Source: Candidatus Omnitrophota bacterium (GTDB lineage: Bacteria > Omnitrophota > Gorgyraeia > Duberdicusellales > 4484-171). From it: a stretch of 64,000 nucleotides of DNA. Below are positions 2,264 to 61,741 of the stretch, piece after piece; the stretch's first letter is position 1; each line of letters begins with the position of its first letter. The position numbers and the translations under genes are program-made. The notes beneath the pieces are model-generated. The model made no database searches, was not told the origin of the DNA, and was given only the letters and a program-made list of their open reading frames with translations. Location of the stretch: contig JAIPGM010000007.1 in NCBI GenBank assembly GCA_021735655.1, positions 6,125-70,124 of the forward strand, read 5' to 3'.

Positions 2264-3523
2264 TTACCTCTTACTATAATATTTAGCTAATATTTCAGAA
2301 ACTGGTTTACGCATTACTCGCTCGTCAACTACTTCTTGATTTTGTAATTTTTTTCTTAATTCTTTTCCGGAAATTAAAATCTGTTTATATCCTTTACCTT
2401 TAGACTCTTCAACTAAACCAACTCGACCTAACTCTTGAAAGTAAGCAGCAAATCCAACCTTAATCGGCTCTATTATCAGTGCTCCGTTTAGGTTGGAGAA
2501 TTTCTCTTGGGCGTCGAAATCACCCCAAGCCGGAGCTCCATCATCGAAAGGAGCGTCAGCGTGCTTGCGACCAATAATAATATTACTAAAGCCATAGTTC
2601 TGACGATAGATAGCATGCATTATTGCTTCTTTTGGTCCGGCATAAAACATCTTCATATCCAGACCAATCAGCATAAGTTGCTGACCTAAATCATAACCCT
2701 TGCTCTTCCAAAGTTCTGAATCCTTATCACCCTGGCCTAGAAGTTTATTCTCGATTAAAACCTCATAAGTTTTCATTCTTATGTCCGCTGGAACATCATC
2801 AGATTTAGTAGCGCCAACCAAAGGATTCAAAACAACTCCGGTAAAAAACCCTTCTCGAGTAAGTTCCTCAGCTCCGTGGACCAAGGCATATTCGTGAGCC
2901 CGGTGTAAAGCATTCCTGGTTTGAAAAGCAACTATTTTTTGCCAGCCCTTCTTTTTAAATATTTCTCTGGTTTCAGAAGGAGTAAGCATGTATTTTCCAT
3001 ATTCAGGATGTAATTTCTGAGGTAAGGCTAAAATCTTGCCGCCTAAAAGATAATCACGCTGATCATCGCTAAATATACGCGGACCAGGATGATCAATGCG
3101 TTCAGTTCCATATACTGACTTATTGTAAGCGGTTTTGTCAAAAGGATAAATATCAGATATCTCTAGAGACCCAATTATTTCCTGAGACTCATTCCTAACT
3201 ACTACTGTCTCACCAACTTCTAAATTATCAGCCTCGGACTTAGATATTGCAAAAGCTAAAGGTATAGTCCAGGCATAAGGCTTACCATTTCTTTCTATAT
3301 ATTCATCAGCTAAAACTTTATTGAACTCAAGCCTAGCCATCGGACCTTCAAGCGGAGATAGACCACCGTCAGCAATTCGATAAAATATTGATAAATCAGC
3401 ATTAGAAATATTATAAACTTTTAATCTAGATATCTTATCGAGAAAAACTTCTCTCTCTAATTTAGGAATAAATCGATCAATTAAGCCGCAACCACCATGA
3501 GCTAAAATACTATTGCCATCCAT
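2264..3523 (-). CDS. sat: sulfate adenylyltransferase (ATP sulfurylase)
   Basis: QTRNALHRAHE motif and ATP-sulfurylase fold length. Start moved to the internal ATG (MDGNSIL...), which is preceded by a GAGGGGG SD. Confidence 0.9.
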   Translation of the reverse strand: MDGNSILAHGGCGLIDRFIPKLEREVFLDKISRLKVYNISNADLSIFYRIADGGLSPLEGPMARLEFNKVLADEYIERNGKPYAWTIPLAFAISKSEADNLEVGETVVVRNESQEIIGSLEISDIYPFDKTAYNKSVYGTERIDHPGPRIFSDDQRDYLLGGKILALPQKLHPEYGKYMLTPSETREIFKKKGWQKIVAFQTRNALHRAHEYALVHGAEELTREGFFTGVVLNPLVGATKSDDVPADIRMKTYEVLIENKLLGQGDKDSELWKSKGYDLGQQLMLIGLDMKMFYAGPKEAIMHAIYRQNYGFSNIIIGRKHADAPFDDGAPAWGDFDAQEKFSNLNGALIIEPIKVGFAAYFQELGRVGLVEESKGKGYKQILISGKELRKKLQNQEVVDERVMRKPVSEILAKYYSKR

Positions 3524-3584
3524 TATTTTCTTCCCCCTCAATTCGCCTATTCTTTCTTAAGATATAGTCAAATTGGTTGTTCTT

Positions 3585-4313
3585 TTAACTTAAAAATTTA
3601 TTAACTTCTAAATATTTTATTATTTTCTTTGCTGCTTCCTCAGGTGAAATATCTTTGGTGCTAAGAGTAATTTCGGGGTTTTGAGGCGGCTCATAAGGAT
3701 CATCAATACCAGTAAAAAGTTTCAATAATCCCTGCCTTGCTTTTTTATAAAGACCGCGAGGATCTCTCTTTTCACACTCCTCAAGCGGTGTATCAACATA
3801 TACTTCAATAAAATTATTACACATTTTCCTCACAAAACTTCTTGATTCTTGATAAGGTGAAATAAAAGAAGCTATAACAATAACTTTATTTTTCTCAAGC
3901 AAGCTAGCTAATAACCCTACTCGCTTGATATGTCTATCTCTCTCAGACTTAGTAAAACCGATCTTAGGAAATATTGCTCTGATTTTTTCACCGTCTAAGC
4001 GTTCAACATTAAAAGACTTAGCCGTAAGTATCCGATAAAGATTCTCAGCAATGGCTTTTTTCCCTGCGGCAGAAAGTCCGGTTAACCAAATCACACAAGG
4101 AATCGCCTCTCTACGACCAAAAGAAATTTTATCCCAAATTCGTTCATGAAAAAAATAAATCGCCATCTTGCTAACAAATTCCAAAAAACCAACCGTAAAG
4201 GCTAAACTTATTTTTCTTGTAAAAATAAATACAATGATTGATGTGGCTATAGTGCCGGCTGATCTCCAAGTAATAGCCTTAAGTATCGAACGTGCCTTTG
4301 TCTCTCTAAACAT
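3585..4313 (-). CDS. APS kinase paralog with N-terminal ~70-aa hydrophobic (membrane) extension
   Basis: C-terminal 170 aa are a canonical APS kinase (GLSAAGKK P-loop). The N-terminus carries two predicted TM segments. Confidence 0.8.
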   Translation of the reverse strand: MFRETKARSILKAITWRSAGTIATSIIVFIFTRKISLAFTVGFLEFVSKMAIYFFHERIWDKISFGRREAIPCVIWLTGLSAAGKKAIAENLYRILTAKSFNVERLDGEKIRAIFPKIGFTKSERDRHIKRVGLLASLLEKNKVIVIASFISPYQESRSFVRKMCNNFIEVYVDTPLEECEKRDPRGLYKKARQGLLKLFTGIDDPYEPPQNPEITLSTKDISPEEAAKKIIKYLEVNKFLS

Positions 4314-4316
4314 AAG

Positions 4317-5459
4317 TTATTTATTAAAAAACCTTCTAGTTGTTGATATTACATAGTTTATTTGCCGGTCAGTTAGCCAAGGATGGATCGGAAGGCTCAA
4401 AATTCTAGTAGCCATACTTTCGGCAACTTTAAGCTTACCACTTATCTTTACCCTCTTAAAAGCCTTCATCTTATGAAGACAAACCGGATAATAAATTCGT
4501 GAATGTATACCCTTGGAATTCAAGTAGTTAAGAAGTTTATCTCTTTTTGCCGAAATTCTCAAGGTATAAAGATGGTAAACATGTCTACAAGCCTTAGATT
4601 CACTGGGAATTTTAAGCTCTTTAATATCTTTAAAAGCATTGTTATATTTTTGAGCGACACTTCTTCTTAAATCATTAAACTTATTAATATGTTTTAACTT
4701 AGCTAAAAGTACTGCTGCCTGCATTGAATCAAGGCGCGAGTTATAGCCGATATAAGCAGCTCTATACTGGCTAGTTTGACCGTGATTGCGCAAGATAGTT
4801 AAAAAAGAAAACAACTTGCTATCATTAGTTGCAATCAAGCCACCGTCACCAAAAGCACCGAGATTTTTAGAAGGAAAAAAACTAAAAGCTCCACAATCGC
4901 CCAGAGAACCTGCTTGTTTGCCATTAAACTTTGCACCAAAACTTTGAGCCGTATCTTCAACCACAAATAAGCCACGGCTTTTCGCTAATTTTGTAATTTC
5001 GCTCATATTAGCTGCCAAACCATATAAATGCACCGGGATAATACCTACTGTATTCTTATTAATCGCTTTTTTTATTTTTAAAGGATCAATATTGTAACTT
5101 TCCGAATCAATATCAACAAATACCGGCGTGGCCCCTGAGTGTACAATACTTTCAGCAGTAGCAATAAATGTAAAAGGCGTAGTGATAATCTCGTCTTTCT
5201 TATCGAAATGCTCCTTACCTTTTATCTTTAAAGCCAAAGCCTTTAAAGATAAAATTAAAGCATCGGTTCCTGAAGCAACACCAAGGGCATGCTTTGTTCC
5301 TAAATAGTCTTCGGCCTTAGCTTCAAAATCCGAAACTGCCTTGCCTAAAATCCATTGCTGAGACTTAAGGCACTGTTTAATATTCTGATCAATCTCTTTT
5401 TTTAAAAAAGAATACTCTTTCTTTAAGTCTAGGAGTGGTATATTAAAATTTTTCTTCAT
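4317..5459 (-). CDS. DegT/DnrJ/EryC1/StrS-family PLP-dependent sugar aminotransferase
   Basis: 380 aa with conserved aminotransferase class motifs (SGTDAL, PLP-lysine region SFFPSKNLGAFGDGG). Confidence 0.85.
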   Translation of the reverse strand: MKKNFNIPLLDLKKEYSFLKKEIDQNIKQCLKSQQWILGKAVSDFEAKAEDYLGTKHALGVASGTDALILSLKALALKIKGKEHFDKKDEIITTPFTFIATAESIVHSGATPVFVDIDSESYNIDPLKIKKAINKNTVGIIPVHLYGLAANMSEITKLAKSRGLFVVEDTAQSFGAKFNGKQAGSLGDCGAFSFFPSKNLGAFGDGGLIATNDSKLFSFLTILRNHGQTSQYRAAYIGYNSRLDSMQAAVLLAKLKHINKFNDLRRSVAQKYNNAFKDIKELKIPSESKACRHVYHLYTLRISAKRDKLLNYLNSKGIHSRIYYPVCLHKMKAFKRVKISGKLKVAESMATRILSLPIHPWLTDRQINYVISTTRRFFNK

Positions 5460-5467
5460 TTGCTATC

Positions 5468-8394
<2,927 letters not shown>

Positions 8395-16403: not shown

Positions 16404-16475
16404 TTATTTCTTTTTTTTCTTTGCTGCTTTTTTCTTTGCAGGTTTTTTCTTCTTTGCTGCTTTCTTCTTTGCCAT
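16404..16475 (-). CDS. 23-aa lysine-rich peptide MAKKKAAKKKKPAKKKAAKKKKK (histone-H1-tail-like basic peptide; function unknown)
   Basis: ATG at 16473-16475 is preceded at optimal spacing by a strong SD AGGGGGGTG and an upstream TTGACA-17-TAAATT promoter, and is followed by an intrinsic terminator. Below the ORF-track size cutoff. Confidence 0.45.
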   Translation of the reverse strand: MAKKKAAKKKKPAKKKAAKKKKK

Positions 16476-16531
16476 GAAAATCACCCCCCTTTTTTATTCT
16501 CAACACTTTGTTAAGAAATACCTTATAATTC

Positions 16532-16560
16532 AATTTAACAAACTTATCACTCAATGTCAA
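16532..16560 (-). promoter_or_regulatory. sigma70-like promoter (TTGACA, 17 nt, TAAATT) for the Lys-rich peptide gene
   Basis: Minus-strand TTGACA (plus 16555-16560) and TAAATT (plus 16532-16537) with a 17-nt spacer, about 55 nt upstream of the ATG. Confidence 0.45.
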
Positions 16561-16676
16561 CACATTTTCGTGTTTTTTTTGATTTTTTAATGCGACTTAA
16601 ATTTTTTGAAATTGCTATTCCGAAAAATTATTAGTTGAATTATTTTTCAAAGTCATTAAAAATGACTAAAAAAATA

Positions 16677-54774: not shown

Positions 54775-55941
54775 TTAAAATATTAGATTAGCAATAAATC
54801 CTAAAACAATTACCTGGGGAACAGTTACGATCGGAAGCCAAATAGCAACTCTCCGACCAACGTTATGCCAAAGAAGCCCAATCTCAGTATAGTCAATAAC
54901 TACCCCGGCCATAAGAAAAACAAAACTGTTTCCCAAAGCTCCGGTTTGTTTAAATATTTCAAAGGCTAAGGGAGCTGACCCCTCAGAACATACCTCAATT
55001 ACGGTGGCAACAGCCAAAGTGACTAAAAGCCCCAAAACCGTTGGGCCCATATAGTTACTAAAAATACTTGAAGGAATATAGGCTCCGGCTAAGCTAGCTA
55101 ATCCAGTACCGATTAGAATCCACCAAAGAACCATATTGCTTAGAGAAATGGCTCCTTTGTATATACCTTTTAAATCCGACTTGAAAATAGCAAAAGAAAA
55201 TTTTCGTCGCTTAATCCGCAGCTTTAAATCTTTAATTACCGAAAAATCTTCTGCAACATTTACAGTATTAGTATTACTCTCAATCAACCCCTGATTTTCT
55301 AGAAATTGAAAAATAAATCCGGTGATTATCGCAATGATAATCGCTGAAATAATTATAAATAGGGCTTTTAAACCAAAAAGCCCTATTAACATTATGGTTA
55401 AAACCATATTCGCCCAGGGACTCGCCAAGAGAAAAGCTACAACCGCTGGGTTTGAAGCTCCTTTTTTATGTAACTGGATTGAAATAGCAAGGATTCCGTG
55501 CGAACAAACACTCATTAAAAAACCGAGAAAAACCGAATAAAAAATTGTTCGCTTTCTAGGACGGGAAAGAAGCAATGAAATATAGTGACGAGGTATATAG
55601 TGCTCGATAACTCCTCCAACTAAAAGACCTAAAGCTATGGCCCACCAGAGGATTTTAAAATAATTAAATAAAGTTTTTCTAAATGGTTCAAGCAGAGGAA
55701 TAAAATAGGAAGCTAAACTCAAAATAGCCATGGCCAAGGCAACAATGAATGTTTTATTTTTATAAAAAGGGTTTTTTGCTACCGTTAGGCAACTCTTAAG
55801 TTTTAATTGAGGTATTTTATTGTCTTGAGCGAACTTTTCTAAACAGCTCTGGCTACAAAAAAAGAAAGTCTCACTCTCGTGATCAATCTGTAAGCTCTTT
55901 TTTTCGTTAACCTTCATTCCGCAAATAGGATCTTGAGCCAC
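54775..55941 (-). CDS. YHS/TRASH metal-binding domain fused to an ArsP/DUF318-like permease
   Basis: N-terminal DPICGMKV (YHS motif) plus CxxC, followed by about 8 TM segments resembling the two-repeat permease family found in ars loci. Confidence 0.6.
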   Translation of the reverse strand: MAQDPICGMKVNEKKSLQIDHESETFFFCSQSCLEKFAQDNKIPQLKLKSCLTVAKNPFYKNKTFIVALAMAILSLASYFIPLLEPFRKTLFNYFKILWWAIALGLLVGGVIEHYIPRHYISLLLSRPRKRTIFYSVFLGFLMSVCSHGILAISIQLHKKGASNPAVVAFLLASPWANMVLTIMLIGLFGLKALFIIISAIIIAIITGFIFQFLENQGLIESNTNTVNVAEDFSVIKDLKLRIKRRKFSFAIFKSDLKGIYKGAISLSNMVLWWILIGTGLASLAGAYIPSSIFSNYMGPTVLGLLVTLAVATVIEVCSEGSAPLAFEIFKQTGALGNSFVFLMAGVVIDYTEIGLLWHNVGRRVAIWLPIVTVPQVIVLGFIANLIF

Positions 55942-55951
55942 TGGGAGTCTC

Positions 55952-56389
55952 CTACTTTAAAAAATCAATATAAACAGCCAGTAATAATGCTAACCCGGAA
56001 AAAATAAAGATAAAAAAATAATTAATTTTATCCTTTTTTGAACTCAATTGACAAAGTAATGTTCCCAAAAGTTCATAGTCATGATCGGACAGTTCTTGCT
56101 TTGAAAGCAGCTTAGGAGTAAGCTGAGAATCCTTTAACTGACGATGCATCAAATTATGACGTCTGAATTTATAGATAAAAAATAAGGTAAACCCGCTTAT
56201 TCCAACATACCAAAATATCTTTGCCAGCATCGGATTAAAATCCAAAACTAAATTAACCGCCCTGACTGATATTGTTGCGATCAAAGCTATAGTAAAAAAC
56301 ACCCAAGCAATCGGTGATTCTTTGCAAGTTTTTAATCTGATACAGTCCTGGCAGATGAACTTTTTATCTTTCTTAAGTGATTTCGACAT
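55952..56389 (-). CDS. small membrane protein with N-terminal CxxC...C motif
   Basis: FICQDCIRLKTC followed by 3 predicted TM helices. Confidence 0.5.
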   Translation of the reverse strand: MSKSLKKDKKFICQDCIRLKTCKESPIAWVFFTIALIATISVRAVNLVLDFNPMLAKIFWYVGISGFTLFFIYKFRRHNLMHRQLKDSQLTPKLLSKQELSDHDYELLGTLLCQLSSKKDKINYFFIFIFSGLALLLAVYIDFLK

Positions 56390-56391
56390 TA

Positions 56392-56892
56392 CTACCTAAT
56401 AGACTTTAATAAATCTTGAAGCAAGCCCCTATGATTTTTCTCTTCACTGATAATTCTATCTAATTCTTTTTTAACTTTCTCAGCAGAAACTGAATTTTTG
56501 CAAAATTCATAGAAGGCAACTGTCTTACTCTCAATGACAACAGCTAACTCTATTGCTTTTTTGGTATCAGTAATAATCTTTTCTAGTTCTTCTTGTCTTT
56601 TAAGACCCTGGAAAATTCCAAAATCAATACTGCTTAATAAATCATTATCTTCGGAAATATCTTCGCCGTTCTTTCTTACTTCGCTTAGAAGATATTCAAA
56701 AATTCTCAAGTGTCGAACTTCCTCAGAAACTAAAAGCTCCAAGGTACTTTTAACCTGCAGCTCAACTACTTTGGCAGCTAATCTTTTATAAAAATCCACG
56801 CCATCTTTCTCAATTTTTTCAGCTATTCGATAAGCTTCAAATTCTGTAAAATCGGTAATTACCAGTTTATCATTTTTTTCTTCTATTTTCAT
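56392..56892 (-). CDS. rubrerythrin-like ferritin-family di-iron protein (no rubredoxin domain)
   Basis: ExxH motifs EEVRH and EEKNH, 166 aa. Confidence 0.65.
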   Translation of the reverse strand: MKIEEKNDKLVITDFTEFEAYRIAEKIEKDGVDFYKRLAAKVVELQVKSTLELLVSEEVRHLRIFEYLLSEVRKNGEDISEDNDLLSSIDFGIFQGLKRQEELEKIITDTKKAIELAVVIESKTVAFYEFCKNSVSAEKVKKELDRIISEEKNHRGLLQDLLKSIR

Positions 56893-57030
56893 AACCAGCC
56901 CTCCATTTGATCAATTATTCTAGCTATTATAAAATCATTATCAGTAAACCCCACGGAAACTAACAACTCTAAAAAAGGAAAAGGGCTTTCCTGAAATACC
57001 ACCTTTCGCATAGCAATGCTCCTTCAGAAA

Positions 57031-57165
57031 TTAAAGATTCCAACTTCCTTTTTCTTTAGTCGTCATCGTCTTATTACAACATTTTATCTTTTTGGTTGAT
57101 TTTTTACCCTTGCCACAAATAACACAAAGGTAAGCTTTTTTTTTATTAGTCTTTCTTTTCGCCAT
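57031..57165 (-). CDS. 44-aa Cys-rich basic protein MAKRKTNKKKAYLCVICGKGKKSTKKIKCCNKTMTTKEKGSWNL (putative small Zn-binding protein)
   Basis: ATG overlaps the upstream gene stop (TAATG), with an AGGAGA SD 5 nt upstream; C-x2-C-x13-CC motif. Below the ORF-track size cutoff. Confidence 0.5.
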   Translation of the reverse strand: MAKRKTNKKKAYLCVICGKGKKSTKKIKCCNKTMTTKEKGSWNL

Positions 57166-57638
57166 TATTTTCTCCTATTCAATAATCTAATTTTCGTCTG
57201 TAATGTCCCCATCGGACAAACCGCACACCAAGTGCGAGCCTGAAAAGGAATCCCGATGAAAATTGCAATCAAGGTAGTTACTAGGCACATTCTTACAAAA
57301 ACAAAACCTAGCGAATAAACATTTCTCTCGACCACAAAAAGTTGACTAGCAAAAAAAATCATAAAGATCGCAAATACCCCCCAACGAAACTTCTGGCTAG
57401 CAAAAATTCTTGGAAGCTGAGCTTTACGACTAACTCTGCTTAAAGCCAAATCCAAAAATGCTCCCCGCGGGCAAAGATGTGAGCACCAAAACCTCCCCTT
57501 AAAATAGGATAAACTTAAAAGAAAAATCATCATCAATAACACCAAGTAGCCTAAAAGAGGAAAAAATAACCCACCGACGATGATTAAAGGTAAAAACCAA
57601 ACCATTATCAACTGACTAAGTTTTACTTTTTTTCCCAA
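57165..57638 (-). CDS. membrane protein with two Cys clusters (4Fe-4S-binding, NapH/MauN-like fragment)
   Basis: CSHLCPRG and CAVCPMG motifs flanking TM helices. Confidence 0.55.
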   Translation of the reverse strand: MGKKVKLSQLIMVWFLPLIIVGGLFFPLLGYLVLLMMIFLLSLSYFKGRFWCSHLCPRGAFLDLALSRVSRKAQLPRIFASQKFRWGVFAIFMIFFASQLFVVERNVYSLGFVFVRMCLVTTLIAIFIGIPFQARTWCAVCPMGTLQTKIRLLNRRK

Positions 57639-57904
57639 AACTCTTCAGCCTCCTCTTCCATTTTTTCTAGCCGATCATAATAATCAGGAAATTCATTAAG
57701 ATGGGCCAAGGCAATTTTTCCGGTAGTTAAGGGATCATCGTTGCTAACATTGGTCTTTGAGTCTACCAAACCATGCTCTAACTCTACATCCATACCTGTC
57801 CTAAACTGATCAAGATCAAATTTATCCCATTTAATTCCTAATTGCTTGCCGATAGCTTTTGCTTCATCTGAGGTAAAATGTTCTTTTGTTGACACCCAGA
57901 CCAC
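57623..57904 (-). CDS. conserved hypothetical protein (DUF; ELEHG...DYY motif)
   Basis: 93 aa, acidic C-terminus, embedded in the rubrerythrin operon. Confidence 0.5.
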   Translation of the reverse strand: MVWVSTKEHFTSDEAKAIGKQLGIKWDKFDLDQFRTGMDVELEHGLVDSKTNVSNDDPLTTGKIALAHLNEFPDYYDRLEKMEEEAEEFWEKK

Positions 57905-57911
57905 CTCCTTT

Positions 57912-58490
57912 TTAATAATTTTCAGCTAAAATTTCGTAATAGCTCTGCGGATGGGCACAGGCCGGACACTTATCCGGGGCCTCTTTGCCTTCATGGACAT
58001 AACCGCAATTACGACATCTCCACTTAACTAATGTATCTTTTTTAAATACTTTTCCTTCCTTCACATTTGAAAGTAGCTTACGATACCTCTTTTCATGTTC
58101 CTCTTCAACCTCGGCTATCTCTTTAAATAAATCAGCAATTTCTAAGAAATCTTCTTCGCGGGCCACAGCTTCAGCTTCTTTATAAAGCTTAGTCCATTCT
58201 AGATTTTCTCCATCGGCCGCCCCTTCCAAATTAGATGCCGTATCTGAAACTATTCCTGCTGGGTAGCTAGCCTGAATCTCAACTTCACCACCTTCTAAAA
58301 ACTTAAAAAACTTCTTAGCATGTTCTTTTTCATTGTCAGCAGTCTCTAGAAAAATGGCTGCTATCTGTTCGTATCCGGATTTTTTGGCCACTGAAGCAAA
58401 ATAAGTATAGCGATTCCGGGCCTGTGATTCCCCGGCAAAAGATGCCAATAAATTTTTTTCTGTTTTAGTTCCCTTTATAGATTTGCCCAT
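57912..58490 (-). CDS. rbr: rubrerythrin (di-iron domain plus C-terminal rubredoxin-like CxxC...CxxC)
   Basis: ExxH motifs plus WRCRNCGY...CPAC. Start set to MGKSIKG, which is preceded by an AAGGAGGA SD. Confidence 0.9.
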   Translation of the reverse strand: MGKSIKGTKTEKNLLASFAGESQARNRYTYFASVAKKSGYEQIAAIFLETADNEKEHAKKFFKFLEGGEVEIQASYPAGIVSDTASNLEGAADGENLEWTKLYKEAEAVAREEDFLEIADLFKEIAEVEEEHEKRYRKLLSNVKEGKVFKKDTLVKWRCRNCGYVHEGKEAPDKCPACAHPQSYYEILAENY

Positions 58491-58509
58491 GACTGAATCC
58501 TCCTTAGAT

Positions 58510-58629
58510 TTATATTTTTTCCATCGGCTGCTCACAACAAACTAATTCTCCGCCTCCAGCCTTAGTCACCGTCACCTCATTACCACAAACATTACACTTA
58601 TATTTTTCACCAACCTGTTCAACTGCCAT
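58510..58629 (-). CDS. desulforedoxin (39 aa)
   Basis: Translation [39 protein letters not shown] has the Dx signature CxxC...GGG..VCC and an AGAGGAGG SD. Not in the ORF track. Confidence 0.8.
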
Positions 58630-58645
58630 AAATACCTCCTCTTAT

Positions 58646-59041
58646 CTACTCAAAACTCAATTCTTGAGAATTTTCCCAAAGTCCATGAATATTGCAATAA
58701 CTAGATACCAAAATTACCCCTGGCTTATCGGTTTTTAAACAAACTGTGGCTTTTGGACAAACATAAACTGTACTTGTATTCGGTCCTTGAACCGATGCTC
58801 CATGGGCACTAAATTCAAATCTTCCTAACTGACAAGGGAATTTCTCTCCTTGAGGCTTAAAATATAGCTCAATCCAAGAAATATGGTGCTCGGTTGTATT
58901 GGGATGGGCAATTTCTTTACCTACGGTTACAACAATGCTAACGCATTCGCCCCTTTTAACCGCGCCCTGAACCTCAATAACCGGAACATGTTTCTCAGAC
59001 TTCCAGTCAGCAGTTTGTAATAAATCTTTTATGCTAGCCAT
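58646..59041 (-). CDS. superoxide reductase (neelaredoxin/1Fe-SOR type)
   Basis: EKHVPVIE, HP...EHHI, and C..HG ligand motifs. Confidence 0.88.
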   Translation of the reverse strand: MASIKDLLQTADWKSEKHVPVIEVQGAVKRGECVSIVVTVGKEIAHPNTTEHHISWIELYFKPQGEKFPCQLGRFEFSAHGASVQGPNTSTVYVCPKATVCLKTDKPGVILVSSYCNIHGLWENSQELSFE

Positions 59042-59054
59042 ACCCTTCTCCTTT

Positions 59055-59288
59055 TTATGCTACCTGTTCAACTTCCTTAACCTCAGGTACCACTTCTTTT
59101 AGTTTCTTCTCAATACCCATCTTAAGAGTGTAAGTGCTCATCGGACAACAACCACAAGCGCCGGTTAAACGTAGCTTAACTACCGCCTCTTTGGTTACCT
59201 CGACCAATTCAACATCTCCTCCGTCGGCCTGAAGAGCCGGCCTTATGTCTTCTAAAGCTTTTTCTACCTTCTCTTTCAACATATGCAC
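59055..59288 (-). CDS. NifU-like (Nfu-type) Fe-S cluster scaffold domain protein
   Basis: GACGCCPMS (CxxC) motif, 77 aa. Confidence 0.8.
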
Positions 59289-59303: not shown

Positions 59304-60605
59304 TTATTTAATTACTTTATCCCCTAAAATAGATTTTAAATCTTCTTCAGCCGTAGTGATTGGTTTGATTTCAAATTTCTCAACCAGTATCTCTAACACC
59401 TTCGGTGAAACAAATGCCGGCAAAGTCGGGCCTAAGCGTATATTTTTAACTCCAAGATGAAGCAAAGTTAATAAAATTGCAACCGCCTTCTGTTCAAACC
59501 AAGATAATACTAATGACAGCGGCAATTCATTTACCCCACAGTTGAAAGCCTTTGCCAAAGCTAAGGCAACTTCTATCGCCGAATAAGCATTATTGCATTG
59601 CCCTAGGTCAAGCAATCTAGGTATGCCTTCAATCTCGCCAAACTCAAGTTTGTTGAACCGATACTTACCGCAAGCAAGGGTAAGAATAAGGCAATCAGCA
59701 GGAACCTTCTCGGCAAACTCAGTATAGTAATTTCGGCCCAGCTTAGCCCCATCACAACCCCCAATAAGAAAGAAATGACGGATCTTTCCTCGTTTAACCG
59801 CATCAACTATTTTATCGGCTAAACTTAGAATAGCCGTGTGATGAAACCCAGTCATTATTTTTTTACCCGGTGCTTCAATAAGTGCTGGAAGTTGTTTGGC
59901 TTTAGCAATCACTGACGAAAAATCTCTCGACTTAAGGTGATTTGCGCCAGACACCCCAGTAACGCCAATCGTAAATAACCTATCTAAATAAGTATCTTTA
60001 GGTGGTATCAAAACGCAATTAGTCGTTACCAATAACGCCCCAGGAAATTCTTTAAACTCCTTCTTTTGCTCTTGCCAAGCATTACCGTAATTACCAACCA
60101 AATGTTTAAACTTCCTTAATTCTGGATAGCCATGGGCTGGCAACATTTCGCTATGGGTATAAACATTAACTCCGGTACCCTCTGTTTGTTTAAGTAGTTC
60201 ATACAAGTCAAGCAAATCATGACCGGTAATTAAAATTCCCGGACCGGCCTTTGTCCCAGTTTCAACCTCTGCCGGAAAAGGATTGCCAAAACGATCAGTA
60301 TGAGCCTTATCAAGCAAAGCCATTACCTTTAAGTTCATCTCGCCACACTTTAGAACCATAGCTAGATAATCATTGAGATCAAAACTGACGTTAGTCACTG
60401 TCTTAAAAAGAGCCTCATGCATAAAGCCATCTACCTCTGGATCCACTGCGCCTAATTCCCGGGCATGAAAAGCATAGGCAGCTATTCCTTTCAATCCGTA
60501 AAGTAAAGTATCCTGCAAGCTCTGGATATCAGAATCTTTACCACAAGCGCCTACTTTCACGCATCCGCTGCCACCAATTGTCTGTTCGCATTGATTACAA
60601 AACAT
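59304..60605 (-). CDS. hcp: hybrid-cluster protein (hydroxylamine reductase), short class
   Basis: N-terminal CNQCEQT...C..VGACGK Cys cluster. Start set to MFCNQCEQ at 60603-60605; the longer track ORF is upstream read-through. Confidence 0.85.
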   Translation of the reverse strand: MFCNQCEQTIGGSGCVKVGACGKDSDIQSLQDTLLYGLKGIAAYAFHARELGAVDPEVDGFMHEALFKTVTNVSFDLNDYLAMVLKCGEMNLKVMALLDKAHTDRFGNPFPAEVETGTKAGPGILITGHDLLDLYELLKQTEGTGVNVYTHSEMLPAHGYPELRKFKHLVGNYGNAWQEQKKEFKEFPGALLVTTNCVLIPPKDTYLDRLFTIGVTGVSGANHLKSRDFSSVIAKAKQLPALIEAPGKKIMTGFHHTAILSLADKIVDAVKRGKIRHFFLIGGCDGAKLGRNYYTEFAEKVPADCLILTLACGKYRFNKLEFGEIEGIPRLLDLGQCNNAYSAIEVALALAKAFNCGVNELPLSLVLSWFEQKAVAILLTLLHLGVKNIRLGPTLPAFVSPKVLEILVEKFEIKPITTAEEDLKSILGDKVIK

Positions 60606-60621
60606 ATCGACCAAACCCCCT

Positions 60622-61332
60622 TTAATAACCGATGAAGCTTTCTGTTTTAACCTTATTTTTATCACAACCGGTTTTAAGGCACAAGTCATGCATCGCCTTA
60701 ACCATCGATGGTGGGCCAAAAACAAAAAAGGTTCTATCTTTCCATCTCTCTATCTTCTCAACTAACAACTCTTGACTAATCACACCGTTAATGCAGCTCT
60801 GATCCTTTGGTTCACAATCAGTCACCAGATAGAATACCTTTATAGTATCATTAGCCGCTTGCCAGTTATCCAGCTCTTCTTTAAAAGCAATATCTTCAGT
60901 CCGGTTAGAATAAAGCAAAATAACATTTGTCTTAAGCCGCTTATTTTCAATGTATTCAATAATTGAAATTACCGGGGTTATGCCAATTCCACCAATTAAA
61001 AATGCTACCTTCTTATTGTCATCACTGAATACACAGCTACCCATCGCCGGCTTTAAATCTACTTTATCACCCGGTTTCAGGTCTCTTAGCTTTTGAGAAA
61101 ATTCACTTTCGCTCAATCTTTTAGTGACCTCCAAATATTGTTTAGTTGGTGAAGAGGAAAAAGAAAGGTACTTATTCAGCTGATGATTCCTAAGATTATC
61201 GCTATCGAAAATAAGTTGTGTAAACTGTCCGGGTAAAAAATCTACCCTTACTTCCGGAAAAAACCGAAAACTCTCTATATCTTTAGTTCTCTTGATGCGT
61301 TCACTTAAACTTGCCTTAATTTTATTTTCCAT
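60622..61332 (-). CDS. FNR-family FAD/NAD(P)-binding oxidoreductase (putative Hcp/rubredoxin reductase partner, no Fe-S domain)
   Basis: KYLSFSS (RxYS-type FAD motif) and GGIGITP NAD motif. Start at the MENKIKA ATG, overlapping the fur-family stop by 11 nt. Confidence 0.7.
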   Translation of the reverse strand: MENKIKASLSERIKRTKDIESFRFFPEVRVDFLPGQFTQLIFDSDNLRNHQLNKYLSFSSSPTKQYLEVTKRLSESEFSQKLRDLKPGDKVDLKPAMGSCVFSDDNKKVAFLIGGIGITPVISIIEYIENKRLKTNVILLYSNRTEDIAFKEELDNWQAANDTIKVFYLVTDCEPKDQSCINGVISQELLVEKIERWKDRTFFVFGPPSMVKAMHDLCLKTGCDKNKVKTESFIGY

Positions 61333-61741
61333 TATTAACCTCCCGGCAGTTTTTACATGTACCATAGAAGTAACCCTGAAGCTCTTCGATGATATTACCG
61401 TCAACTTCTCGTTGTTCAAGAGCCTTGCAAGGCTTCATATTAAGATCCGAAATTTCATCACAGCTCTTACATAAAAAATGATGGTGGGGGTCAATTCTAG
61501 CTTCAAAGCAAGACTTATCAAACTGTATTCTTATCTCATTAATTACGTGCTTCTGCTTAAAAAGATCCAAAACCGTATAAACAGTAGCCAAAGATACTGC
61601 TGGCATTCTAAGCTTAACTCTCTCGTAAATCTGATCAGCAGTTAAATGCTTACCATTATTTAAAAGAACTCCATGGACCTCTAACCTCTGCTGAGTTGGC
61701 CTTATATCATGACCCCTTAATACCTTAAGACTGTTTTCCAT
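61322..61741 (-). CDS. Fur-family metalloregulator (PerR-like by context)
   Basis: N-terminal HTH region, HHHF.C..C metal-site motifs, C-terminal CxxC; heads the oxidative-stress cluster. Confidence 0.85.
   Translation of the reverse strand: MENSLKVLRGHDIRPTQQRLEVHGVLLNNGKHLTADQIYERVKLRMPAVSLATVYTVLDLFKQKHVINEIRIQFDKSCFEARIDPHHHFLCKSCDEISDLNMKPCKALEQREVDGNIIEELQGYFYGTCKNCREVNNGK

Follow-up and report, generated by a model that had tools for sequence, protein, structure and literature searches.

Within a stretch of 64,000 nucleotides from a Candidatus Omnitrophota bacterium (assembly GCA_021735655.1, contig JAIPGM010000007.1; the whole stretch is hereafter called the window) we found a small gene of 44 codons (positions 57031..57165, minus strand) encoding a polybasic mini-protein with four cysteines. 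This protein belongs to an undescribed, apparently Omnitrophota-specific family of polybasic, short-loop proteins resembling desulforedoxin (Dx). The data directly support a real gene, a conserved family with an invariant four-cysteine motif, a distant similarity to Dx and a consistent operon context. We tentatively propose that the mini-protein acts as a mononuclear Fe(Cys)4 one-electron shuttle or adaptor of the oxidative-stress cluster in which it is encoded. Omnitrophota are ubiquitous, mostly uncultured and partly ultra-small bacteria, and desulforedoxin is among the smallest redox metalloproteins.

The small gene and its family

The translated protein (MAKRKTNKKKAYLCVICGKGKKSTKKIKCCNKTMTTKEKGSWNL, 44 aa, followed by a TAA stop) carries cysteines at positions 14, 17, 29 and 30. 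This gives the arrangement C-x2-C-x11-CC, for which the first-pass annotation had miscounted the distance between the cysteine pairs as x13, and delimits a predicted metal-binding core in codons 14-30 (57076..57126, minus strand). With 14 Lys and 1 Arg versus 1 Glu the net charge is +14 and the pI 10.2; the other proteins of the operon contain 4-13% Lys, and the G+C content of the whole window is 37.5%. The ATG (57165..57163) shares one base with the TAA stop (57167..57165) of the upstream 157-aa open reading frame (ORF), which encodes a Fer4_5 membrane protein, and the resulting TAATG (57163..57167, minus strand) indicates translational coupling. A Shine-Dalgarno (SD) sequence AGGAGA was located, as in the first pass, at 57171..57176 on the minus strand (57176..57171 in reading direction), five bases 5' of the ATG. 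A GGAG-type motif precedes the ATG by 5-10 nt in all but one of 14 loci of the small gene. In most loci the gaps to the flanking genes lay between -8 bases and some tens of bases, and in locus L006, which holds a syntenic copy, the small gene overlaps the genes on both sides, including an ATGA overlap analogous to TAATG.

A single-sequence, word-indexed homologue search with the window protein matched only the protein itself, and no Pfam or NCBIfam family was matched in scans of this sequence. The initial description of an unannotated, basic, Cys-rich small protein inside a rubrerythrin/oxidative-stress operon was borne out. When 1.84 billion cluster representatives were searched exhaustively with phmmer, 11 small proteins (42-66 aa) shared its architecture; all other matches were eukaryotic C2H2 zinc-finger arrays that matched only 'YVCxxCGK'. 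A profile built from the small proteins retrieved 69 clusters (40-71 aa), and three loci were returned by a profile scan of metagenome contigs with a subset of the family alignment. When a hidden Markov model (HMM) of the family was run against all ORFs of 65 loci, members scored at E <= 3e-15 and everything else at E >= 0.03. Members that carry a name in their source are always listed as 'hypothetical protein' of Candidatus Omnitrophica/Omnitrophota (e.g. MDD5614178.1, MCM8773163.1, MFH1771728.1, MCP4652696.1), and from these existing source names, on which the taxonomic range is based, the family is apparently restricted to Omnitrophota. The window, too, looks like Omnitrophota DNA when judged from the best matches of the neighbouring proteins.

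In an alignment of 66 family sequences the four cysteines (Cys14, 17, 29 and 30 of the window protein) were invariant. The x11 spacing between the cysteine pairs was present in 60 members, Met34 was conserved in 65, Trp42 in 61 and Gly40 in 59, and the C-terminus formed a conserved motif of the KGSWNL type. Basic residues were conserved as well: Lys or Arg occupied columns 8, 10, 22, 26 and 39 in 83-94% of sequences, and the family has a median net charge of +11 at pI 10.0. Because some members carry Arg in place of Lys (R/(K+R) up to 0.5), the conserved trait of the sequences is suggested to be positive charge rather than a bias for AAA codons. Near-full-length matches to PF25031 SBSPON_C (positions ~52-92) were also seen in 27 of the 66 members, including P0020, P0024, P0026, P0035 and P0041; they stayed at 15-19 bits, below the cutoff of 27. 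This domain belongs to a eukaryotic extracellular-matrix protein and the matches are probably compositional (Lys and Cys), and a kinship was set aside.

For 13 family genes with fetched DNA the mean pairwise difference was 0.79 at synonymous sites, where it is saturated, versus 0.31 at non-synonymous sites. The dN/dS ratio was 0.13-0.28 wherever dS could be computed, and third codon positions were the most variable. The frame is thus kept in relatives, some 69 homologous clusters in all, and no terminator-like site was found in 56300..58700; conservation of the frame and the absence of a 3' untranslated region (UTR) with a terminator were the two points on which the first-pass annotation had made its proposal depend. 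Since the frame is kept and a terminator is lacking, the small ORF is, judged from its sequence, a real protein-coding gene. One might have suspected that the ORF arose by chance in the Fer4_5 gene's 3' UTR or intergenic spacer, given that it is short, that it is unannotated or unnamed in most source assemblies and that AT-rich DNA yields Lys-rich chance ORFs. This explanation has a negligible probability in view of the 69 homologous clusters with invariant cysteines, non-synonymous variation far below synonymous variation, the conserved SD sequence, the lack of a terminator, and a sequence that is kept while its operon position differs between genomes.

Similarity to desulforedoxin

The first-pass annotation had recognised no match for the mini-protein, which does show a distant link to Dx (PF06397 Desulfoferrod_N) through a shared signature, profile comparison and predicted fold. 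The closest known proteins are Dx itself (PDB entries 1DXG and 1CFW) and, in 2Fe superoxide reductase (desulfoferrodoxin, 1DFX), the Dx domain at the N-terminus. Dx is a homodimer with a small antiparallel beta fold on which both knuckles sit, and each centre coordinates a single Fe in distorted tetrahedral Fe(S-Cys)4 geometry. The same operon provides a comparator of its own: a 39-aa ORF located 1.3 kb upstream of the small gene (58510..58629, minus strand) is a canonical, acidic Dx with the spacing C-x2-C-x15-CC (PF06397 E 1.5e-17, 63.3 bits; 1CFW/1DFX E 9e-7). When the mini-protein was searched by tblastn against the window and related loci, this ORF was the joint best non-self match, tied with an unrelated ORF at E 0.64. 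Both proteins share the signature Y-x-C-x2-C-G...CC-x3-M.

Profile comparison gave a clearer result. Aligned by hhalign against 34 Dx sequences, the family alignment matched over 30 columns with a probability of 90.1% and an E-value of 1.6e-6, which is a pairwise value and is driven partly by the cysteines; the alignment takes in both cysteine pairs and the Met, with a single four-residue gap in the loop. In a control against 11 rubredoxin sequences only the first knuckle of seven residues was aligned (probability 51.5%). Consistent with this, the best full-span non-members under the family HMM in the 65 loci were canonical Dx proteins. The predicted fold, from a model of moderate confidence, is beta-rich, with the Lys-rich N-terminal tail (residues 1-10) at a predicted local distance difference test (pLDDT) score of ~60, and its top six PDB matches were all desulforedoxins or desulfoferrodoxin N-domains. 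A model of the true Dx from the operon (pLDDT 87.6) returned the same six top entries and reached only E 2.6e-3 against 1dxg_A, which means that at this protein size the rank is informative and the absolute E-value is not. A sequence-profile search of the PDB gave mostly partial C2H2 zinc-finger or rubredoxin knuckle matches to 'EKxYVCxxCGK'; Dx alone spanned both cysteine pairs there, at an E-value (0.16) that is not usable alone.

Profile comparison, fold model and signature together support the reading of the family core as a divergent Dx-type Cys4 knuckle, and the mini-protein is probably homologous to Dx. Membership in PF06397 as curated is not supported. The HMM searches proposed in the first pass left the window protein without any match to this family at E<=10, hence below the gathering threshold of 23 bits, and gave sub-threshold matches in 18 of the 66 members (best E 0.0074). 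Nor does the mini-protein have the x15 spacing, C-x2-C-x15-CC being the conserved signature of centre I according to SORGOdb (PMC3116461). We found no paper describing such a polybasic, short-loop Dx-like protein and no curated family model, and a literature search for desulforedoxin-like Omnitrophica proteins or a lysine-rich desulforedoxin gave nothing relevant. Of free-standing desulforedoxin itself, the physiological role is to our knowledge still unclear.

Genomic context

We compared what surrounds the small gene at 15 separate loci (the window, L006, L048, L051, L053-L056, L058 and L060-L065). In 13 of them it lies co-directionally within an oxidative or nitrosative-stress cluster, and in 14 it either belongs to an oxidative-stress cluster or lies next to a metal permease gene of such a cluster. 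The regulator of these clusters is of the Fur family or Rrf2. The most frequent companions, each in 11 loci, were an FNR-like NAD(P)H oxidoreductase module of 233-265 aa without an Fe-S domain, and ferritin-like/rubrerythrin-family proteins without a rubredoxin domain or erythrin-VIT1. A NifU-like protein was encoded in 10 loci and an ArsP_1 permease with a YHS or HMA domain in eight. Superoxide reductase (SOR), hybrid-cluster protein (HCP), rubrerythrin, rubredoxin, FprA, DUF5661, DJ-1 and AhpC were present variably.

The immediate neighbours of the small gene vary between loci. Upstream of it we found Fer4_5 in the window and L006 only, DUF5661 in L053 and L060, ferritin in L048, L062 and L063, SOR in L061, and NifU immediately upstream in L054, L055 and L065; the FNR-like gene adjoins it in L051 and L063. 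The minimal context was seen in L065 (3733..4132): here pilus and radical-SAM genes surround an isolated pair made up of the NifU-like gene and the small gene, both read in the same direction. NifU is the only co-directional neighbour there, which hints at a functional link of the small gene with an Nfu-type Fe-S carrier. Among 47 loci fetched via the Fer4_5 protein, the small gene was found within 4 kb in L006 alone. The coupling to the upstream FeS membrane protein proposed in the first pass is thus real as regards the TAATG overlap, and local rather than conserved. A role as dedicated partner of the Fer4_5 protein was rejected on this count and because 13 other loci of the family lack Fer4_5.

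Two loci show further features. In L058, which lies outside a classical SOR/rubrerythrin cluster, the small gene has only two companions: a regulator-like ORF before it (3244..3927, 227 aa, by eye with the look of a Rex-type redox-sensing repressor) and an ArsP_1-like permease with a C-terminal heavy-metal-associated (CGHC) domain ~400 nt downstream (4538..5782). In L053 a gene that overlaps the small gene downstream (5125..6366) encodes an unusual fusion of a transaldolase with a C-terminal rubredoxin domain (PF00923 and PF00301), which ties pentose-phosphate (NADPH-supplying) metabolism to the rubredoxin network.

In the window the co-directional cluster is headed by a gene for a Fur-family regulator (61322..61741; this and all following genes on the minus strand). 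Next come genes for the FNR-like NAD(P)H oxidoreductase module (60622..61419, NAD_binding_1, no Fe-S domain), a hybrid-cluster protein (59304..60725, Prismane), whose true start is probably near MFCNQCEQ and later than the listed ORF start, the NifU-like (Nfu-type) protein (59055..59288) and a 1Fe superoxide reductase with a Desulfoferrodox domain (58646..59041). These are followed by the canonical Dx gene and by rubrerythrin (57912..58535). The listed start of the latter overlaps the Dx ORF by 26 bases; the overlap is likely artificial, the first GTG having been chosen, with the true start probably at a later ATG (MGKSIKGTK..., compared with MSKSIKGTK in L006). A gene for an acidic DUF5661 protein (57623..57904, 93 aa, net charge -10) and the Fer4_5 gene (57165..57638) complete the upstream part. 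The Fer4_5 protein is a polytopic membrane protein with NapH/CcoG-like CxxxCP motifs (PF12801 E 6.4e-15) and has weak similarity to NapH/CcoG.

Downstream of the small gene lies a 40-aa ORF (56889..57011). Its C-terminal half GFTDNDFIIARIIDQMEGWL matches the end (...GGLTENDFIMAGIIDEIGGS) of a 284-aa AhpC-TSA and Pterin_4a fusion protein of L060, whose gene follows the small gene in the same position, and it has no counterpart in L006. This ORF is probably a 3' relic of a lost or replaced AhpC/pterin-4a-dehydratase fusion gene and lies outside the system; in view of the match it was rejected as a second novel small gene. Next is the gene for a ferritin-like, rubrerythrin-family protein of 166 aa without a rubredoxin domain (56392..56892, PF02915 E 3e-9; E...ExxH...E...ExxH motifs judged by eye); in L055, L061 and L062 an orthologue comes one or two genes after the small gene. 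The next gene in the window (55952..56389) encodes a membrane protein of 145 aa that matches no Pfam family, carries CQDCx5C near its N-terminus and is conserved in L006, L048 and L060; in L006 and L048 this gene directly follows the small gene, and in L060 the AhpC/pterin-4a-dehydratase gene stands between them. It was always found immediately upstream of the gene for the YHS-domain ArsP_1 permease, a predicted metal permease (54775..55941 in the window), and the pair looks like an uncharacterised two-gene metal/thiol transport module in the stress cluster. Elsewhere in the window, a Lys/Ala-rich, histone-H1-like or Hc1-like frame (~16410..16590, minus strand; KKAAKKKKPAKKKAAKKKK...) was a compositional match of the query.

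Possible functions and comparison with known proteins

A metal- or redox-related role, as suggested in the first pass, is the best reading of the sequence of the mini-protein; its metal, redox activity, partners and direction of electron flow are what we infer here from homology and context. The core Y-x-C-x2-C, 11-residue Lys-rich loop and CC-x3-M would bind one metal ion through Cys14, 17, 29 and 30, flanked by the flexible polylysine N-terminal tail and the conserved KGSWNL C-terminus. By homology and context this metal is most likely Fe, which would make the protein a one-electron carrier. Since the most frequent companions of the small gene encode an FNR-like reductase without an Fe-S domain and diiron proteins without a rubredoxin domain, we propose a carrier between the two. 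The FNR-like NAD(P)H reductase would supply the electrons, or in the window perhaps the translation-coupled Fer4_5 membrane Fe-S protein. The electrons would be passed on to acidic terminal enzymes, above all ferritin-like/rubrerythrin-family diiron proteins without their own rubredoxin domain, the 166-aa protein being a candidate acceptor in the window. Such peroxidases rely on external reductases, as in the example of ferriperoxin with FNR (PMC3317640), and a small carrier or adaptor between an FNR-like reductase and a rubredoxin-less peroxidase could supply the missing link of an NAD(P)H peroxidase chain. A net charge near +11 may steer docking either to acidic partners (net charges in the window: ferritin-like -6, DUF5661 -10, rubrerythrin -3, SOR -2) or to an anionic membrane face that holds the Fer4_5 protein, the 145-aa membrane protein and the permease. 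We regard this Fe(Cys)4 shuttle or adaptor as a plausible working proposal, to be held tentatively.

The same charge might be read differently. A structural Zn(Cys)4 ribbon that binds a polyanion (DNA, RNA, polyphosphate or acidic phospholipid) and carries no electrons could serve as a nucleic-acid shield, as a tether of ferritin-like proteins to DNA in oxidative stress, or as a small regulator. The extreme basicity of the window protein and the family, the flexible Lys-rich tail, the conserved basic columns and the predominance of zinc-finger knuckles in the PDB profile search would fit such a role. Known Fe(Cys)4 carriers are acidic (median pI of canonical Dx 5.2), and Dps-type ferritins bind DNA through Lys-rich tails. 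The whole-domain similarity of the family is, however, to Dx and not to a nucleic-acid-binding Zn ribbon, no nucleic-acid-binding family of Pfam or NCBIfam was matched, and in almost every locus the neighbours are redox-enzyme genes rather than genes of DNA or RNA metabolism. We therefore consider the structural ribbon unlikely. Of similarly low probability is a polycationic, Dx-derived Fe/Zn-thiolate module attached to a polyanionic surface (nucleoid DNA, RNA, polyphosphate or the inner membrane leaflet), which would not be a soluble rubredoxin-like carrier and might switch locally with redox state, or donate iron or electrons for the repair of oxidised Fe-S or di-iron centres together with NifU-like and ferritin-like proteins. 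Were this surface-held module to prove true, it would represent a new functional class and an unrecognised Omnitrophota-specific component of anaerobe oxygen defence.

A donor, chaperone or sensor of iron or another metal, which would provide the NifU-like carrier with Fe or electrons to repair clusters or exchange metal with the ferritin-like, VIT1 or YHS/HMA-ArsP module, appears more doubtful still. It would account for the presence of NifU in 10 of the 15 loci, immediately upstream in three and as the sole co-directional neighbour in L065. It would likewise agree with the ferritin-like, VIT1, erythrin-VIT1 (MbfA-like) or metal-domain ArsP permease genes that often lie downstream, and with the conserved CQDCx5C transmembrane protein after the small gene in L006, L048 and L060. 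Yet adjacency to NifU or to any single transporter is not universal, the mini-protein does not resemble HMA, frataxin or other known metallochaperone folds, and Cys4 sites of the rubredoxin or desulforedoxin type keep a firm hold on their metal and are not known to donate it. The resemblance to Zn-ribbon ribosomal proteins noted in the first pass holds for composition only, and a divergent ribosomal paralogue is very improbable given that no ribosomal family of Pfam or NCBIfam was matched at E<=1 by the window protein or at E<=10 by any of the 66 members, that no ribosomal-protein operon surrounds the small gene at any of the 15 loci (a single ribosomal gene, L21, lies in the vicinity, ~4.5 kb downstream in L053), and that the adjacent CC pair is typical of Dx and not of ribosomal ribbons. 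Both this reading and that of a chance ORF are effectively excluded.

The presence of a Dx-like protein in an oxidative-stress operon is in itself not very surprising, and the function proposed for it is inferential. What is unusual is a charge reversal in a well-studied metal site, found in a previously unrecognised small-protein family. The Dx knuckle evidently tolerates the loss of four loop residues and a reversal of charge by ~12 units, and this short-loop variant has been held by purifying selection across a whole candidate phylum. The family adds a conserved, unannotated component to the Omnitrophota oxygen-defence cluster; gene callers often miss it and no Pfam or NCBIfam model covers it, and a family model can be built from the present alignment. 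At 44 residues the protein is also easy to synthesise, and could serve to test how Fe(Cys)4 sites are tuned by their charge and the length of their loop.

Compared with rubredoxin (PF00301) and the rubredoxin-like domain of rubrerythrin (PF21349), whose second element is C-P-x-C-G, the mini-protein has CC at this position. Rubredoxins have two C-x2-C-G knuckles ~30 residues apart, an aromatic core and an acidic character, while the mini-protein lacks this combination, is much shorter, is basic (pI 10.2) and has no Pfam match to rubredoxin. A second kind of basic-tailed, Dx-like mini-protein was found in other Omnitrophota, represented by MARKCGAKRKTAKKSKYVCEVCGLIVSVDETCGCVDTCDIICCGQQMKEKK (L044, 6206..6361), which is encoded between a rubredoxin and a rubredoxin-SOR fusion; further examples were seen in L012 (~4158..4286) and L009 (~4378..4509). 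The L044-type protein shares with our family the phylum, a similar operon, the polybasic N-terminal tail and the pattern Y-V-C-x2-C-G...CC-G-x2-M. It differs by a longer loop with four extra cysteines, by the lack of the KGSWNL tail and by being nearer to PF06397 (E 8e-4, below the cutoff), and our family HMM scores it at only E 0.12. It may coordinate several metals or a cluster.

With Dx itself the mini-protein shares the tiny size (~36-44 aa), the tetra-Cys site built from a C-x2-C knuckle and an adjacent cysteine pair (in all 66 members), the aromatic residue two positions before the first Cys, the Met four positions after CC, and the location in SOR/rubrerythrin oxidative-stress operons. 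The loop between the cysteine pairs, in contrast, is four residues shorter than the x15 found in all 34 Dx sequences, and is Lys-rich where Dx has a hydrophobic/GGG hairpin. Archer and co-workers (1995, cited in PMC3116461) reportedly described this hairpin as forming the dimer core of Dx, and its replacement by a Lys-rich loop would argue against a Dx-type homodimer. The family median charge is +11 (pI 10.0) versus -1 (pI 5.2) in Dx, and the mini-protein adds a disordered polybasic N-terminal tail as well as the conserved KGSWNL C-terminal extension. A heterodimer with the acidic canonical Dx was rejected as a general mechanism, because the small gene co-occurs with a free-standing canonical Dx in the window and L060 only. 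In these two loci both proteins are encoded in one operon, and an ordinary rubredoxin accompanies the small gene in the window, L006, L056, L060 and L062-L064, which indicates that the mini-protein is not simply a replacement for either.
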